From a virus (Duplodnaviria > Heunggongvirae > Uroviricota > Caudoviricetes), in IMG/VR virus record IMGVR_UViG_2531839195_000014: 7,330 nucleotides of DNA; one strand, 5' to 3'. The translations under genes and the position numbers were made by a program. This document shows, piece after piece, positions 1-7,247 of this stretch. The notes under the pieces were generated by a model. It had not been told where the DNA came from, made no database searches, and saw only the letters and a program-made list of their open reading frames with translations. Every line of letters starts with the position of its first letter. Position 1 is the first letter of the stretch.

Positions 1-190
1 CGGCGGCCACAGCAGTAAGACTTCCTTCCTGGTATTGCTTACGCCAGAGAAATAACTGGCTGGCTGCTACACCATGTTGCCGGGCAACGAGGGAGACCGT
101 CATCCCCGGTTCAAAGCTCTGCTGAACAATTGCGATCTTTTCCTGTGTGGTACGCCGTCTGCGTTTCTCCGGCCCTAAGACATCAATCAT
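1..190 (-). CDS. insC: IS2 OrfA (InsC) N-terminal 63 codons, partial (C-terminus outside window)
   Basis: Minus-strand translation from ATG (rc of 188-190) gives [63 protein letters not shown], matching the IS2 InsC N-terminus as I remember it. Frame is open to the window edge. Confidence 0.8.
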
Positions 191-281
191 CTGTTCTCCA
201 ATGACTAGTCTAAAAACTAGTATTAAGACTATCACTTAAATAAGTGATACTGGTTGTCTGGAGATTCAGGGGGCCAGTCTA
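1..281 (-). mobile_element. IS2 (IS3 family) left-end fragment; element continues beyond the window start
   Basis: Reverse complement of 251-281 reads TAGACTGGCCCCCTGAATCTCCAGACAACC, which I recognise as the IS2 terminal inverted repeat; the IS2 orfA start lies about 90 bp inside. The outer boundary at 281/282 is set by the terminal TAGACT. Confidence 0.85.
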
Positions 282-737
282 CTCAGCATTATATAGTTCT
301 ACTCTGGCGAGATACGTTGGCATATTCATTTCCTTACTGGTTGTGTGAGAACTTCAGTAAAGATACCACCAAAGCCCGGAAGTGGTGAAATAAAACCGGG
401 CACAACACGAAGGCGCATTTCCGGTATCCATAAAGAGTCGGTCTTGTCTGTGAAATTTAAATGGTGGGAGTGCGCTTCCGGTTGTAAATAACGACATTGC
501 TGTGTGAAGTACCAGTTGGCGGCATCGGTTTAATTGCTGGCTGATGTCCGCCCTTTTTAAAGTGAATTTTGTGATGCGGTGAATGCGGCTATGCGCACGC
601 GGCACAGTTAAAAGTCATGTTAGTCCTTATTGGTTTGGGTGGGAAAGCCAACTGTAATTGTTAACTGGTTAACGTCACCTGGAGGCACCAGGCACCGCAT
701 CAACAAAGTTCACTTCGGTGATGAAAGGAAAGAGAAA

Positions 738-938
738 ATGTTGAATGTAGCTATTGAAAACCAGAACGGGTGGAATTATAGTGCACCTGCACCTCATAAA
801 ACGGGTGCCGGGATTGCTACCCCGACGATGACTACTGCGCATAACCGCGCTCAGGCGGTTTTTTATGCGTCAAGCACAGCCACATTCAGATTATGGTGGG
901 GCGTGCAGGGCAGCCGCAAGGCTGGCCGGTTTCGGTAG
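738..938 (+). CDS. small hypothetical ORF (66 aa), coding status uncertain
   Basis: ATG at 738 preceded by AAGGAAAG; same frame as the listed 630-938 ORF, which uses a TTG start. No recognisable motif. Its 3' end overlaps, in another frame, an open stretch leading into the Rha gene. Confidence 0.25.
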   Translation: MLNVAIENQNGWNYSAPAPHKTGAGIATPTMTTAHNRAQAVFYASSTATFRLWWGVQGSRKAGRFR

Positions 939-1030
939 TCACCGGTTGTAGCAACCCTGTGCGTCTCACCACCCATGAGATTGCTACCTCTGGTGGTGAG
1001 TCATTTAAACTGACTATCGAGGCTGCCATC

Positions 1031-1585
1031 ATGGCTACTATCCTTACCCTTTCTCACCCTGACGCAACCATCGAAAATGGTCGCGCTGTCACTACGTCTG
1101 TTGCGGTTGCGGAGTTCTTCCGGAAAATGCACAAAAACGTTATTCAGAAGATCGAAACTCTCGAATGCTCGCCGGAGTTTAACCGGCTTAATTTTAAGCC
1201 CGTCACCTATACCGACGCCAAAGGCGAAAAACGCCCAATGTACCAAATCACCAAAAACGGCTTCGTTTTCCTGGTGATGGGCTTCACTGGCAAAAAAGCC
1301 GCCGCATTCAAGGAAGCCTACATTGCTGAGTTCGACCGCATGGAGGCCGAACTGCGCCAGAATAACACCCCACCTGCAGACAAGATGATTCCGGGTGATG
1401 GTCGCACTCTGGTTGTTCACTTCGACAAATTCGGCAATGTCGAATTCACCGAAACCGTTCCTGATGGCGCACTGGTCTGTACCCTGGAGACTTTCCGGTT
1501 TTATCTGGAAAAACAGGGATGGACTCTTGTTAACCGGGGCGCAATTAAAAATATGACTGTGGAACAATTACTTTCTTTAAAATAA
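1031..1585 (+). CDS. Rha-family phage regulatory protein (antirepressor-like), 184 aa from ATG 1031
   Basis: Protein MATILTLSHPDATIENGRAVTTSVAVAEFFRKMHKNVIQKIETLECSPEFNRLNFKPVTYTDAKGEKRPMYQITKNGFVFLVMGFTGKKAAAFKEAYIAEFDRMEAELRQ has the hallmark Rha-domain pattern (TTS..VAE.F.K.H.NV, LNF, PMY..TK.GF..LVMG.TGKKA..FK.AYI..F..ME) recalled from memory. GAGG lies 9 nt upstream of ATG 1031. The frame is also open from ATG 893, which has no RBS, so the start is uncertain. Confidence 0.75.
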   Translation: MATILTLSHPDATIENGRAVTTSVAVAEFFRKMHKNVIQKIETLECSPEFNRLNFKPVTYTDAKGEKRPMYQITKNGFVFLVMGFTGKKAAAFKEAYIAEFDRMEAELRQNNTPPADKMIPGDGRTLVVHFDKFGNVEFTETVPDGALVCTLETFRFYLEKQGWTLVNRGAIKNMTVEQLLSLK

Positions 1586-1956
1586 AAATGGAGCTACGGA
1601 TATGAACCCTATGCTTGATTATTGTTTTACCTCTGCACCTCAGCAGACCATAACACACACCGGAATCAAAAATTTGTTATGGATAATCAAAAAAACCTCC
1701 AGTAGAAAGGTGATCCCGATTTAATTCCCTGTGCTTATGGCCTGTGTGACAGACAAGTAAGCCCTGATAAGGCTTACACTGCTGAACTTATTTACATGCA
1801 CGGAACCATGATGAGGAAAAAGAAACGCAAATATTGTAGTGAAATCTGCGCCGAAAAAGACCAGATGGCACACGAACTTTAATTAACTGACTATTCGAAA
1901 CTGAATTTATGCCAGCAATGGCAGGGATTCGCTCAACCTTAATTAAGGAGAAAAAC

Positions 1957-2033
1957 ATGAACACCAATTATGAAGCCACTGTTGCAACTACTGATAACAT
2001 TGTTCACGAGGTTTACCTGGAAGGAAAGCATAT
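1957..2033 (+). pseudogene. 5' fragment (first 25 codons) of an 81-codon gene of unknown function, interrupted by IS600-like copy 1
   Basis: Strong RBS AAGGAG (1945-1950), 6-nt spacer, ATG 1957; reads MNTNYEATVATTDNIVHEVYLEGKH and then runs into the IS terminus at 2034. The in-frame continuation is found on the minus strand at 4194-4023. Confidence 0.6.
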
Positions 2034-2097
2034 TGAGGTAGCCTGAGTTTAACGGACACTCCTTCCTGAAATAGAATGGCATCAGAAGGAGCTAATA

Positions 2098-2385
2098 ATG
2101 AGCAGAAAAACCCAACGTTACTCTAAAGAGTTCAAAGCCGAAGCTGTCAGAACGGTTCTTGAAAATCAACTTTCGATCAGTGAAGGCGCTTCCCGATTAT
2201 CCCTTCCTGAAGGCACTTTAGGACAATGGGTTACCGCCGCCAGAAAAGGGCTCGGTACTCCTGGTTCCCGCACGCTGGCTGAACTGGAATCTGAAATTCT
2301 GCAACTGCGTAAGGCGTTAAATGAAGCTCGCCTTGAGCGCGATATATTAAAAAAGCAACAGCGTATTTTGCACAGGAGTCGCTGA
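2098..2385 (+). CDS. IS600-like OrfA (helix-turn-helix transposase subunit), 95 aa
   Basis: Product MSRKTQRYSKEFKAEAVRTVLENQLSISEGASRLSLPEGTLGQWVTAARKG... then a leucine-zipper-like ILQLRKALNEARLERDILKK; RBS GGAG upstream. I recognise this as IS600 ORF1-like. Confidence 0.85.
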   Translation: MSRKTQRYSKEFKAEAVRTVLENQLSISEGASRLSLPEGTLGQWVTAARKGLGTPGSRTLAELESEILQLRKALNEARLERDILKKQQRILHRSR

Positions 2386-2434
2386 AAAATACGCGTTAAT
2401 CGAACAATGGCGACAACAATTTCCCATTGAAGCG

Positions 2435-3226
2435 ATGTGTCAGGTATTTGGTGTATCCAGGAGCGGTTATTACAACTGGGTACAGCATGAACCCTCAGAC
2501 AGAAAACAAAGTGATGAGCGGCTAAAACTGGAGATTAAGGTGGCACATATCCGCACTCGCGAAACATATGGAACCCGGCGGCTCCAGACGGAGCTGGCAG
2601 AGAATGGCATCATCGTTGGTCGTGACCGACTGGCACGTCTTCGTAAGGAGCTGAGGCTACGCTGTAAGCAGAAACGCAAGTTCAGAGCGACTACGAACCC
2701 GAACCACAATCTGCCAGTTGCGCCAAATCTGCTGAACCAGACGTTCGCTCCTACAGCACCAAATCAGGTCTGGGTGGCGGACCTGACGTATGTTGCTGGC
2801 ATCAAAGATGTTTATACGTGCGAAATTGTCGGCTACGCCATGGGAGAGCGCATGACAAAAGAGCTGACAGGTAAAGCCCTGTTTATGGCGCTCAGGAGCC
2901 AGCGCCCACCTGCCGGGCTAATCCACCACTCTGATCGAGGTTCACAGTACTGCGCATACGATTACCGGGTCATACAGGAGCAGTCTGGTCTGAAAACATC
3001 AATGTCGCGTAAAGGTAACTGTTACGACAACGCTCCGATGGAAAGCTTCTGGGGAACGCTGAAAAATGAGAGCCTGAGCCACTATCGTTTTAATAACCGG
3101 GATGAAGCCATCTCAGTAATACGGGAATACATTGAGATTTTCTACAATCGTCAGCGTCGTCACTCTCGTCTGGGGAATATCTCCCCGGCAGCCTTCAGGG
3201 AAAAATATCATCAGATAGCTGCTTAA
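2435..3226 (+). CDS. IS600-like OrfB (DDE transposase catalytic domain), carrying a 27-bp in-frame deletion
   Basis: ATG-initiated ORF; the frame is open from 2351 and is +1 relative to orfA. Contains WVADLTYV...HHSDRGSQY...NAPMESFWGTLKNE, typical of IS3-family DDE/RNase H fold transposases. Lacks the 9 codons TQEGWLYLA that are present in copies 2 and 3. Confidence 0.8.
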   Translation: MCQVFGVSRSGYYNWVQHEPSDRKQSDERLKLEIKVAHIRTRETYGTRRLQTELAENGIIVGRDRLARLRKELRLRCKQKRKFRATTNPNHNLPVAPNLLNQTFAPTAPNQVWVADLTYVAGIKDVYTCEIVGYAMGERMTKELTGKALFMALRSQRPPAGLIHHSDRGSQYCAYDYRVIQEQSGLKTSMSRKGNCYDNAPMESFWGTLKNESLSHYRFNNRDEAISVIREYIEIFYNRQRRHSRLGNISPAAFREKYHQIAA

Positions 3227-3250
3227 AAAAAGAACAAATGGTAGTGTCCG

Positions 3251-3895
3251 CTATTGCCAGTACACCTCAGCCTTAATTGCATCAGTCAGGCGGAGCAGGG
3301 CGGCATTATCCAGAGTTGTCGGTTCTGCCATGCCGCGTATGGCCAACAGCAGATTCTGGACATAGCTGTTTTCCTGATCCATCTCAAGAGCAGTAATGTG
3401 TTTGCGTTGTTCACGGGTGGCATGATGCAGGTATTTCAGATCCCCGGCAGCATACGTAAAAATGTGCAGAAGACGCTGTGTGAACCGCAAAGTGGCTACA
3501 GAGACTTCGCAATCCTGGCAATCCTCGTGGGCGTCTGCCTGCGCGTTTTCTTCCTGGCCTCCCGCCAGTTCTTTGGTTTCTTGAGCATTATCCTGGTGGT
3601 GAACGTCGTCTGGCGCTGCTCCCGGTTTTAGTTCCCATGTCATGGAGTCTTTGCTGAGTTGATAGCGTTCACTCCAGGTAAAATCGATCTCACCTTCAGG
3701 GGGAAGGTCATTAACGACAGGAAAATTTGTGGCAACAGCTTTAAAATAGTTGCTCAGTTTTTTACCTGACTTAACGAGCAGATAGTCCAGAGTGGTGCTG
3801 GTCGATTCAAAATCGTCGCTTGCCCACAGGACGACGTCAGGTTCACCGGATGATTTTTTCGCTTTCCGTAACAGGAAGAGTGGTTTTGTGCTCAT
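3251..3895 (-). CDS. hypothetical protein, about 208 native codons, 3'-truncated and fused to 5 IS-derived codons plus stop
   Basis: Long minus-strand ORF; ATG at rc 3893-3895 with GAGG 9 nt upstream (the listed ORF starts at TTG 3910). The protein has an N-terminal region, an acidic D/E/Q-rich linker ([32 protein letters not shown]) and a C-terminal region. The frame runs through the IS copy 1 junction at 3269/3270, so the last codons (EVYWQ, stop at 3251-3253) are IS sequence. I do not recognise a family. Confidence 0.5.
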
Positions 3896-3964
3896 TGTTT
3901 TTAACCTCAACTCAGATTAAAATTACTGCGAGTGATGAATAAATGTCCCAGGTTCTTCACTCAG

Positions 3965-3995
3965 GCCTGCACACTGTGCAGGCTTTCTTTTTTTC
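3965..3995 (+). terminator. Rho-independent terminator-like hairpin (plus strand)
   Basis: GCCTGCAC (3965-3972), loop ACT, GTGCAGGC (3976-3983), followed by TTTCTTTTTTTC (3984-3995). On the minus strand the stem is followed by no U-tract, so it is directional. Confidence 0.5.
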
Positions 3996-4022
3996 AGATT
4001 TCACCTTTTAATTTCATTGCAA

Positions 4023-4194
4023 TCAGATTTGCCAGAAATTCGGCTTTTTTTCTGCGGGCAGATTATTTCCGATGTAAACTAGGCACATTTTTGTGGCACC
4101 TTCAACAAGAGTTTTAAAGTTTCCTGATAGACCGTCGATATCAACTACAGTGAATGGGGTTTCTTTATTTTCTGTTTTAATTACGTAGCCAATA
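4023..4194 (-). pseudogene. 3' fragment (last 56 codons plus stop) of the 81-codon gene begun at 1957-2033
   Basis: Minus-strand frame reads (H)IGYVIKTENKETPFTVVDIDGLSGNFKTLVEGATKMCLVYIGNNLPAEKKPNFWQI then stop. Joining 1957-2033 to rc(4194-4023) restores an uninterrupted frame (…AAG CAT ATT GGC TAC…) with a shared TAT triplet at both junctions. The listed ORF 4023-4226 owes its first 11 codons to the IS terminus. Confidence 0.6.
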
Positions 4195-4237
4195 TGAGGT
4201 GTACTGGCAATAGCGGACACTACCATTTGTTCTTTTT

Positions 4238-5055
4238 TTAAGCAGCCATCTGATGATATTTTTCCCTGAAGGCTGCCGGGGAGATATTCCCCAGACGAGA
4301 GTGACGACGCTGACGATTGTAGAAAATCTCAATGTATTCCCGTATTACTGAGATGGCTTCATCCCGGTTATTAAAACGATAGTGGCTCAGGCTCTCATTT
4401 TTCAGCGTTCCCCAGAAGCTTTCCATCGGAGCGTTGTCGTAACAGTTACCTTTACGCGACATTGATGTTTTCAGACCAGACTGCTCCTGTATGACCCGGT
4501 AATCGTATGCGCAGTACTGTGAACCTCGATCAGAGTGGTGGATTAGCCCGGCAGGTGGGCGCTGGCTCCTGAGCGCCTTAAACAGGGCTTTACCTGTCAG
4601 CTCTTTTGTCATGCGCTCTCCCATGGCGTAGCCGACAATTTCGCACGTATAAACATCTTTGATGCCAGCGAGGTACAACCATCCCTCCTGTGTGGCAACA
4701 TACGTCAGGTCCGCCACCCAGACCTGATTTGGTGCTGTAGGAGCGAACGTCTGGTTCAGCAGATTTGGCGCAACTGGCAGATTGTGGTTCGGGTTCGTAG
4801 TCGCTCTGAACTTGCGTTTCTGCTTACAGCGTAGCCTCAGCTCCTTACGAAGACGTGCCAGTCGGTCACGACCAACGATGATGCCATTCTCTGCCAGCTC
4901 CGTCTGGAGCCGCCGGGTTCCATATGTTTCGCGAGTGCGGATATGTGCCACCTTAATCTCCAGTTTTAGCCGCTCATCACTTGTTTTCTGTCTGAGGGTT
5001 CATGCTGTACCCAGTTGTAATAACCGCTCCTGGATACACCAAATACCTGACACAT
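4238..5055 (-). pseudogene. IS600-like orfB, copy 2, frameshifted by a 1-bp deletion
   Basis: Copy 2 has TT at 4981-4982 where copies 1 and 3 have TTT (sense strand AAA to AA). Sense reading becomes ...RKQVMSG-stop shortly after the orfB start; the downstream catalytic region (4238-4951) is intact but out of frame. Confidence 0.8.
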
Positions 5056-5104
5056 CGCTTCAATGGGAAATTGTTGTCGCCATTGTTCGATTAACGCGTA
5101 TTTT

Positions 5105-5392
5105 TCAGCGACTCCTGTGCAAAATACGCTGTTGCTTTTTTAATATATCGCGCTCAAGGCGAGCTTCATTTAACGCCTTACGCAGTTGCAGAATTTCAGA
5201 TTCCAGTTCAGCCACCGTGCGGGAACCAGGAGTACCGAGCCCTTTTCTGGCGGCGGTAACCCATTGTCCTAAAGTGCCTTCAGGAAGGGATAATCGGGAA
5301 GCGCCTTCACTGATCGAAAGTTGATTTTCAAGAACCGTTCTGACAGCTTCGGCTTTGAACTCTTTAGAGTAACGTTGGGTTTTTCTGCTCAT
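5105..5392 (-). CDS. IS600-like OrfA, copy 2 (95 aa)
   Basis: Identical to copy 1 OrfA except L60V (…GSRTVAELE…). Confidence 0.85.
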   Translation of the reverse strand: MSRKTQRYSKEFKAEAVRTVLENQLSISEGASRLSLPEGTLGQWVTAARKGLGTPGSRTVAELESEILQLRKALNEARLERDILKKQQRILHRSR

Positions 5393-5456
5393 TATTAGCT
5401 CCTTCTGATGCCATTCTATTTCAGGAAGGAGTGTCCGTTAAACTCAGGCTACCTCA

Positions 5457-6228
5457 ATTCCCCAGACGAGAGTGACGACGCTGACGATTGTAGAAAATCT
5501 CAATGTATTCCCGTATTACTGAGATGGCTTCATCCCGGTTATTAAAACGATAGTGGCTCAGGCTCTCATTTTTCAGCGTTCCCCAGAAGCTTTCCATCGG
5601 AGCGTTGTCGTAACAGTTACCTTTACGCGACATTGATGTTTTCAGACCAGACTGCTCCTGTATGACCCGGTAATCGTATGCGCAGTACTGTGAACCTCGA
5701 TCAGAGTGGTGGATTAGCCCGGCAGGTGGGCGCTGGCTCCTGAGCGCCATAAACAGGGCTTTACCTGTCAGCTCTTTTGTCATGCGCTCTCCCATGGCGT
5801 AGCCGACAATTTCGCACGTATAAACATCTTTGATGCCAGCGAGGTACAACCATCCCTCCTGTGTGGCAACATACGTCAGGTCCGCCACCCAGACCTGATT
5901 TGGTGCTGTAGGAGCGAACGTCTGGTTCAGCAGATTTGGCGCAACTGGCAGATTGTGTGTTCGGGTTCGTAGTCGCTCTGAACTTGCGTTTCTGCTTACA
6001 GCGTAGCCTCAGCTCCTTACGAAGACGTGCCAGTCGGTCACGACCAACGATGATGCCATTCTCTGCCAGCTCCGTCTGGAGCCGCCGGGTTCCATATGTT
6101 TCGCGAGTGCGGATATGTGCCACCTTAATCTCCAGTTTTAACCGCTCATCACTTTGTTTTCTGTCTGAGGGTTCATGCTGTACCCAGTTGTAATAACCGC
6201 TCCTGGATACACCAAATACCTGACACAT
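5457..6228 (-). pseudogene. IS600-like orfB, copy 3, 1-bp insertion frameshift and 3' truncation
   Basis: Extra T at 5958 (GATTGTGTGTTCGGG versus GATTGTGGTTCGGG in copy 2) shifts the frame after ...RATTNPN. The 3' end is cut at 5457, and the listed ORF 5454-5888 terminates in copy 2 IRL sequence. Confidence 0.8.
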
Positions 6229-6277
6229 CGCTTCAATGGGAAATTGTTGTCGCCATTGTTCGATTAACGCGTATTTT

Positions 6278-6565
6278 TCAGCGACTCCTGTGCAAAATAC
6301 GCTGTTGCTTTTTTAATATATCGCGCTCAAGGCGAGCTTCATTTAACGCCTTACGCAGTTGCAGAATTTCAGATTCCAGTTCAGCCACCGTGCGGGAACC
6401 AGGAGTACCGAGCCCTTTTCTGGCGGCGGTAACCCATTGTCCTAAAGTGCCTTCAGGAAGGGATAATCGGGAAGCGCCTTCACTGATCGAAAGTTGATTT
6501 TCAAGAACCGTTCTGACAGCTTCGGCTTTGAACTCTTTAGAGTAACGTTGGGTTTTTCTGCTCAT
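6278..6565 (-). CDS. IS600-like OrfA, copy 3 (95 aa)
   Basis: Protein identical to copy 2 OrfA. Confidence 0.85.
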   Translation of the reverse strand: MSRKTQRYSKEFKAEAVRTVLENQLSISEGASRLSLPEGTLGQWVTAARKGLGTPGSRTVAELESEILQLRKALNEARLERDILKKQQRILHRSR

Positions 6566-6869
6566 TATTAGCTCCTTCTGATGCCATTTTATTTCAGGAA
6601 GGAGTGTCCGTTAAACTCAGGCTACCTCACATGTCTCTGGCGCAATGCCCGGGCTTTTTATTCGCACATCGTGAGGAATGCACCGTGGAAATTAAAAAAT
6701 CATTAATCCCCGTTATACCGAAAGTGGCGCAGTAGACTGTGACGTTTTTTTTGACGACAGGGACCAGGCAGTCCCCTACACAGCCACCGCTGATGATGTC
6801 GCACCGACGGGTCAGCGAATCTGGCAGGAACTGCAAAGTGGCAAATGGGGTGAGATAGCCCCATTCACT

Positions 6870-7247
6870 GTGACACCAGAAATGCTGGAAGCGGCCAGAG
6901 AGGCCAGACGTCAGGAAATTGAAGCATGGCGCACAGAACAGGAGGCGAAGCCGTTCACGTTTGAATGGAACGGTCGTATCTGGAATGCTGGCCCCAACTC
7001 ACTGGGCCGCCTTTATCCGGTGGTAATGGCTGCGAAATCCGACATTGTACGGGACGTGATGACGTGGGGTGATGCCGATAATCAGCAGGTGAAACTGTCG
7101 ATGCCGGAACTGGAAGAACTGGCGGCAGCAATGGTGCAGGCGCAGGTCGATCGCAACGATGAGATTTATCGCCGTCAGCGTGAAATGAAAGAGGAGCTGA
7201 GCGGTCTGGATGATTTGGCTTCAATTCGGGCGTTTGACGTTGAGTAA
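6870..7247 (+). CDS. phage tail-associated DUF4376-like protein (tail-fibre-assembly-like region); 5' end disrupted or uncertain
   Basis: Product …EMLEAAREARRQEIEAWRTEQEA…MTWGDADNQQVKLSMPELEELAAAMVQAQVDRNDEIYRRQREMKEELSGLDDLASIRAFDVE resembles, from memory, the DUF4376 family found beside prophage tail-fibre genes. The frame is open upstream to 6696 with coding-like sequence but no start codon or RBS before GTG 6870 / ATG 6882. The stop overlaps the next start (TAATG). Confidence 0.45.
   Translation: MTPEMLEAAREARRQEIEAWRTEQEAKPFTFEWNGRIWNAGPNSLGRLYPVVMAAKSDIVRDVMTWGDADNQQVKLSMPELEELAAAMVQAQVDRNDEIYRRQREMKEELSGLDDLASIRAFDVE

Follow-up and report, generated by a model that had tools for sequence, protein, structure and literature searches.

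Are two short open reading frames (ORFs) that lie on opposite strands of a prophage, each ending at an insertion sequence (IS), the parts of a single gene, and by what rearrangement could they have been separated? The question is raised by a 7,330-nt stretch of Caudoviricetes DNA (IMG/VR record IMGVR_UViG_2531839195_000014; the whole stretch is called the window below), which belongs to a decayed Rac-like prophage that carries ipaH and sits between ybhA and pgl on a chromosome of the Shigella flexneri type. An earlier note, made from the sequence without database searches, had proposed that an 81-codon gene starting at 1957 was split by an IS600-like insertion, and that recombination between two inverted copies then inverted the segment 3270–4194. 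We identify the gene as racC, and insertion of IS600 into racC followed by recombination among IS600 copies at three sites, with two nested inversions, very probably accounts for the present structure. The two fragments are:

1957..2033, plus strand: racC 5' fragment, 25 codons + 2 nt; TAT at 2031–2033 is one copy of the target duplication
4023..4194, minus strand: racC 3' fragment, 56 codons + stop; ATA at 4192–4194 is the second TAT copy, reverse-complemented

The small ORF opens with ATG at 1957 behind an AAGGAG ribosome-binding site, the strong signal that the note had described, and runs for 77 nt on the plus strand to the left inverted repeat (IRL) of IS600 copy 1. The IRL does begin at 2034, but the cut falls inside codon 26 rather than after codon 25. 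The predicted remainder, 56 codons on the opposite strand ending at the right inverted repeat (IRR) of copy 2 at 4195, agrees to the base. Joining 1957–2033 to the reverse complement of 4023–4191 gives 246 nt of stop-free, 81-codon frame encoding the same 81 aa as proposed, and TAT stands where it had been placed, beside the copy 1 IRL and, reverse-complemented, beside the copy 2 IRR.

A 1456-nt reconstruction (1500–2033 plus the reverse complement of 3270–4191) aligns in one piece to Escherichia coli FDAARGOS_944, with 100% coverage and 99.5% identity, at a locus where the gene order is Rha – YdaE – racC – recE. Window positions 282–2035 are colinear with 7783–9537 of that locus (L001; 99.0%), and 3270–4196 correspond to its positions 10458–9531 in reverse (99.5%). 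racC and recE are likewise colinear in ~1850 further E. coli genomes and in several Rac-type phage records. The exact 81-aa protein is uninterrupted on 149 public contigs, under the name 'rac prophage; predicted protein [Shigella dysenteriae 155-74]', and the representative of its cluster (P0123) leads to another intact, colinear E. coli prophage (L025). The expectation that relatives would hold an uninterrupted 246-bp ORF is borne out by the protein match and the FDAARGOS_944 alignment, and the opposite outcome, in which the flanks belong to different, unlinked genes, is not what relatives present: there, both fragments are one gene. Coincidence, that is, two unrelated short ORFs that happen to share TAT and an in-frame junction, could appeal to the 3-bp match, which by itself has a 1/64 chance, but is refuted by the one-piece alignment to intact genomes together with the exact full-length protein match; its probability is practically nil.

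The identity of the gene follows from its relatives and its setting. A homologue in a phage record is annotated 'protein RacC' with 91 aa, and the ydaE–recE neighbourhood of racC, the Rac-type early-left operon, is found in FDAARGOS_944 and in phage records. The difference in length lies in one homopolymer:

4045..4051, minus strand: A7 run in racC, A8 in the 91-aa form (from alignment with FDAARGOS_944, A7, and phage L002, A8)

A7 amounts to a −1 frameshift 13 codons before the normal racC end, shortening RacC from 91 to 81 aa, and is present in the window, in FDAARGOS_944 and in all 18 S. flexneri-type loci described below. Against NCBIfam NF007306 (PRK09790; 91 positions, cutoff 171 bits), the 81-aa form scores 140 bits over positions 1–78, and the frame-corrected 91-aa form 169.7 bits over positions 1–91, just below the cutoff. 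The gene is a divergent, frameshifted racC allele and does not belong to another family; the allele is ~78% identical to the 91-aa RacC cluster, which has 1448 members vs 19 for the 81-aa form. Because A7 occurs in the S. flexneri 2457T reference, and because RefSeq flags the gene as 'frameshifted' in FDAARGOS_944, we regard the 81-codon ORF as a real lineage frameshift allele of racC (canonical length 91 aa) in a Rac-like prophage. The note's 81-codon gene thus stands as a gene that is uninterrupted in relatives, but its length is that of the A7 allele. The 3' A-run also varies more widely (proteins P0123, P0151, P0156 and P0158), with A6 giving 88 aa, A7 81 aa and A8 91 aa, and the A7/81-aa form recurs in racC alleles only ~80% identical. 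This is recurrent slippage at one site, which may be biological phase variation or partly sequencing error.

Three IS600 copies occupy much of the window:

2034..3269, plus strand: IS600 copy 1, IRL to IRR, 1236 bp; RefSeq 'IS3-like element IS600 family transposase'
4195..5456, minus strand: IS600 copy 2, full length (1262 bp here, 1264 bp in the other assemblies), with its IRR directly beside the racC 3' fragment
5457..6629, minus strand: partial IS600 copy 3 (IS positions 1–1173), without the last 91 bp and the IRR; abuts the copy 2 IRL

Copy 1 begins with TGAGGTAGCC at 2034. RefSeq names the element IS600 with a programmed frameshift, and the window IS600 scores 300 bits against NCBIfam transpos_IS3 (cutoff 160). 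The element measures 1264 bp with TGAGGT...ACCTCA ends in 7 related loci and in the prophages L014 and L025; the window lengths of 1236, 1262 and 1173 bp are due to a 27-bp deletion, homopolymer miscalls and truncation. A 3-bp target duplication is seen at simple insertions in L014 (TTG) and L025 (TAG), and in the window the duplicated TAT is split across copies 1 and 2. Read in IS orientation, the flanks are TAT – copy 1 – GCC, AAT – copy 2 – TAT, and ATG before copy 3; in all other assemblies copy 2 is flanked by ATG and TAT. As had been claimed, neither of the first two copies has matching flanks at its own ends. TAT pairs copies 1 and 2 with each other, and the partners of GCC (recE) and CAT (tail fibre) are expected on a copy outside the window. 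Both copies of the earlier note are present; partial copy 3 had gone unmentioned.

All the variable sites in the IS600 copies are strain polymorphisms that arose after the rearrangement. Copy 1 carries a 27-bp in-frame transposase deletion between 2796 and 2797 (376 aa vs 385), which is common to L003, L007, L015, L019 and L022 and marks a subclade. A 34-nt near-palindrome, GCGTATTTTGCACAGGAGTCGCTGAAAAATACGC, lies just downstream of the frameshift-site A-run in each copy (2361–2394, 5096–5129 and 6269–6302), and is possibly a candidate frameshift-stimulating hairpin of the orfA/orfB overlap.

How widely is the split structure shared? Exact matches to two junction ORFs (one being 4023–4226) were looked up and returned 18 loci in 15 assemblies, including AE014073 (S. 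flexneri 2457T, where the locus spans 904,640–917,284). Junctions J1 (racC/IS600), J2, J3 and J5 are identical in 18/18 loci, and the order and orientation of four unique markers are the same throughout. In draft assemblies the racC fragment sits on ~940-bp contigs, the length that a unique segment of 925 bp flanked by repeats would give. J1 was not found in 5,426 complete E. coli genomes. The rearrangement is old and fixed in the lineage.

The same data bear on the proposal that the junctions are assembly chimeras from collapsed or misjoined IS600 repeats. The window assembly is error-prone, with eight homopolymer deletions relative to the related locus L003, and contains one unique IS junction (J4, 5456/5457), which gives the proposal some footing. 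Against it stand the four identical junctions and the constant marker orientation in 15 independent assemblies, AE014073 among them, and the ~940-bp short-read contigs. For the racC split the chimera reading is refuted, as the earlier note's own alternative of this kind must be, and it remains for J4 only; as an account of the junctions at large it is scarcely credible. A reversible switch was also considered and rejected: a single orientation is seen in the 15 assemblies, and because IS600 stays inside racC, re-flipping the segment would leave the gene interrupted.

We then asked how the split relates to the prophage as a whole, using FDAARGOS_944, which holds an intact prophage between ybhA and pgl and is of enteroinvasive type, since ipaH genes are present. 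The intact order is ybhA – int ... gam – recE – racC – ydaE – Rha ... cI/cro ... lysis, head, tail, tail fibre – DUF4376 – ipaH – pgl. Two features of the window are needed for the comparison:

3270–4194, minus strand: 925-bp unique segment, recE codons 1–209 and the last 56 racC codons
3270..3895, minus strand: recE (exodeoxyribonuclease VIII) codons 1–209; Pfam PF06630 Exonuc_VIII, E=3e-67

recE is cut by the IRR of IS600 copy 1, with the flank GCC at 3270–3272. In L003, the blocks lie as follows relative to FDAARGOS_944:

QueH to racC 5': inverted, 99.1–99.3%
recE 1–209 and racC 3': ancestral orientation, 99.6%
DUF4376 to ybhI: ancestral orientation, 98.5%

The segment enclosed by the two IS600 copies of opposite orientation is reversed when compared with the outgroup, and the inversion of 3270–4194 holds with respect to the racC 5' side. 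Measured against the chromosome backbone (pgl), however, 3270–4194 has the ancestral orientation, and the inverted portion is the left side of the window; two flips have returned the 925-bp block to the way it first lay. The intact recE target GGC, after codon 209, was seen, as was the intact tail-fibre target (...GGATGCA CAT GTCTCTGG...) in L012 and L013. From the block orientations it follows that IS600 entered three sites (racC TAT, recE GGC and tail-fibre CAT), and that two nested inversions, or an equivalent excision and reintegration, took place. The scheme of the earlier note, one insertion with a 3-bp duplication and one inversion between inverted copies, keeps its TAT pairing but leaves the GCC and ATG flanks unexplained; two more sites and a ~34-kb inversion are needed.

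Based on these observations, we propose the following course, with D denoting distal recE; b, recE 1–209 and racC 3'; a, racC 5' to QueH and beyond; and T, tfa, ipaH and pgl. IS600 (IS3 family, 1264 bp) would have inserted inside racC codon 26, duplicating TAT, and two further copies would have entered the same prophage: one in recE after codon 209 (GGC), the other at the tail-fibre 3' end, just inside the DUF4376 start (CAT). Homologous recombination within these near-identical inverted copies would then have rearranged the prophage from D – b – a – late – T to the present D – late' – a' – IS – b – IS – T, by two nested inversions of 925 bp and ~34 kb, in either order. Every IS/flank junction was kept because the exchanges fell inside the IS; for this reason the duplicated TAT is now divided between two IS copies, and the gene can be put back together to the base. 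The exchange would have followed a RecA-type route, and dependence on host recombination is suggested by the mechanism of the IS3 family. A third, hybrid IS600 copy is predicted towards the ybhA end of the prophage, flanked by GAGAAAACTGCC at its IRL and by ATGTGCATCCGGCACC at its IRR. Recombination between inverted IS copies drives inversions in Shigella (PMC8072062), and IS600 belongs to the five IS that have expanded across all Shigella (PMC7373316).

Two other routes would lead to the same arrangement. In the first, the directly oriented IS600 copies of racC and the tail fibre loop out a ~34-kb a-late circle, which is reinserted at the recE IS600; the outcome is again D – late' – a' – IS – b – IS – T, junctions included, but a non-replicating circle would have to survive and reintegrate. 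The sequence fits both routes, and two intramolecular inversions are simpler and common in Shigella (PMC8072062); we consider excision and reintegration unlikely. In the second, a single transposase-made event is invoked: the racC IS600 attacks recE by replicative intramolecular transposition, producing an inverted copy and the 925-bp flip in one step, and a tail-fibre exchange follows later. The one-step product, racC5'-TAT/IRL..IRR/GCC-recE'...racC3'-ATA/IRR'..IRL'/GGC-distal recE, has the same four junctions as insertion followed by homologous recombination. IS3-family elements (IS911, IS2, IS3, IS150) transpose by copy-out/paste-in through a circular intermediate, with no Shapiro-type replicative cointegration, and adjacent inversion-duplication is thus not an expected product of this family. 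In addition, E. coli FDAARGOS_943 contains two inverted IS600 copies without an inversion, the racC copy having its own duplication, and independent insertions therefore do occur in this region. The single-event route is accordingly quite improbable.

FDAARGOS_943 carries the same ybhA prophage, 99.8–100% identical to that of FDAARGOS_944, and resembles the present locus in that racC and the 5' part of recE each contain an IS600, the recE copy being inverted (L014 2886–6279). The insertions are independent: the racC copy lies 28 bp upstream of the flexneri site and has kept its TTG duplication, the recE copy lies 90 bp upstream of the flexneri site, and the 866-bp segment between them is in native orientation. 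The locus thus differs in its insertion sites, its retained duplication and its uninverted segment, and also in that the recE copy has a deletion reaching into int. By analogy, FDAARGOS_943 shows what the state before inversion would have looked like.

Several points weigh against the proposed course. (i) The partner junctions that it predicts (IRL next to GGC of distal recE; tail-fibre CAT next to IRR) were not found in genome_contigs, metagenome_contigs or ecoli_genomes, although these sets probably lack an S. flexneri chromosome, since GTDB represents each species by a single genome, and are therefore uninformative here. A protein search with distal RecE gave hits labelled S. flexneri (P0015, P0019) that are a different recE allele, and no cluster representative starting at the predicted junction. 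(ii) No polymorphism marking a crossover was present in the IS copies compared. (iii) The exact intermediate, with IS600 at the TAT site and the segment uninverted, occurred in no genome seen. (iv) Two inversions would leave the same final structure as excision and reintegration, and homologous recombination the same as a transposase-made inversion.

The occurrence of two independent IS600 pairs in racC and recE may point to a regional IS600 hot spot. The IS600 sites of the two lineages (S. flexneri and FDAARGOS_943) lie within ~30 bp of each other in racC and ~90 bp in recE, and the A6/A7/A8 variation of racC is a separate observation. The 91-aa RacC of E. coli K-12 blocks the retron toxin RcaT, an activity shown for the K-12 protein only, and RecE triggers the retron toxin/antitoxin by degrading multicopy single-stranded DNA (msDNA; Bobonis et al., bioRxiv 10.1101/2020.06.22.160242). 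From the insertions and the A-run variation, the racC–recE pair could be a recurrent target and not a chance victim, either through a strong local preference of IS600 or through selection in Shigella and enteroinvasive E. coli to silence, or toggle by strand slippage, a retron-blocker/retron-trigger pair; we hold this to be unlikely.

Sequence quality has to be considered in reading the window. Relative to L003 there are nine indels: eight single-base homopolymer deletions (858, 1688, 2355, 3897, 4980, 5135, 6308 and 6693) and one extra base at 5958. Homopolymer deletions of this kind typically come from uncorrected long-read or flow-based sequencing, and the frameshifts that appear in Rha, YdaE, DUF4376 and the three IS600 transposases are probably sequencing errors. 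At the IS600 frameshift site the A-run is A6 in 3/3 window copies vs A7 in 14/14 copies compared from related loci, and A6 places orfB in the wrong frame; since all indels but one relative to L003 are homopolymer deletions, A6 in these copies is probably an error as well. A 95-aa OrfA variant with A6 occurs in many assemblies.

J4 joins partial copy 3 exactly at the copy 2 IRL terminus. None of the 18 related loci has this junction, and the ORF spanning it had no record in the exact look-up. Copy 3 has the same substitution states as the single L003 copy, from which copy 2 differs at three positions. The tandem arrangement fits a real second IS600 landing in the first, followed by deletion across the 91-bp direct repeat; alternatively, it may be an assembly misjoin at the repeat boundary.

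The remaining parts of the window are:

1..282, minus strand: left end of IS2, cut by the window edge; 100% match to 'IS3-like element IS2 family transposase' elements
283–2033, plus strand: prophage early-left genes, Rha/Ash regulator, YdaE and the start of racC (from ORF and repeat scans)
6630..7247, plus strand: tail-fibre assembly gene (Pfam DUF4376), right end of the prophage

IS2 entered upstream of the Rha gene in a simple insertion of its own; in related loci such as L003 the insert measures 1331 bp and has a 5-bp duplication, visible as an overlap of the flanks relative to FDAARGOS_944. The flank CAT at 6630–6632 belongs to the third IS600 target, which lies close to where the tail-fibre gene ends. 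Beyond the window, to the right of the DUF4376 gene, lie ipaH and then pgl; ipaH, a type III secretion system effector gene, follows DUF4376 immediately and adjoins pgl (L003 1–8768, L013 24739–30464). As many as seven homologous tail-fibre/DUF4376 modules occur in FDAARGOS_944, and an ipaH gene follows at least two of them.

Inversions are a familiar outcome in these organisms: 103 of 114 reconstructed ones fell on Shigella branches (Seferbekova et al. 2021, PMC8072062). What is seen here is a textbook result of IS expansion in Shigella, and the locus is already contained in the S. flexneri 2457T reference genome; we found no description of this specific inversion in the literature. Like the present case, the Shigella IS surveys (PMC8072062; Hawkey et al. 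2020, PMC7373316) concern expanded IS that insert in genes and inverted copies that then recombine, but they either worked with synteny blocks no shorter than 5 kb or mapped insertion sites from short reads, and a 925-bp inversion nested in ~34 kb is below that resolution. On the virulence plasmid pINV, intramolecular IS–IS recombination remodels the intervening DNA (Pilla et al. 2017, PMC5629016); the events there are deletions and integrations with a virulence phenotype, whereas here chromosomal DNA is inverted within a cryptic prophage and no phenotype is evident. The K-12 Rac prophage has the same gene pair, racC–recE, in the same order downstream of ydaE, and differs in that the allele here is the A7/81-aa form, split by IS600, beside a recE cut at codon 209. 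With its position at ybhA/pgl and its ipaH, the present prophage is Rac-like, not Rac itself.

The importance of the finding beyond annotation is small, and no new mechanism or function is implied. Sub-kilobase inversions nested in larger ones are invisible to synteny surveys with blocks of at least 5 kb, and a base-exact history of the prophage can help in annotating pseudogenes and can serve to mark an IS600 lineage. The consequence is the loss of recE, and of racC, which already carried the A7 frameshift allele. What S. flexneri genomes show as two orphan ORFs and a 'RecE fragment' is all that is left of a single racC–recE module.

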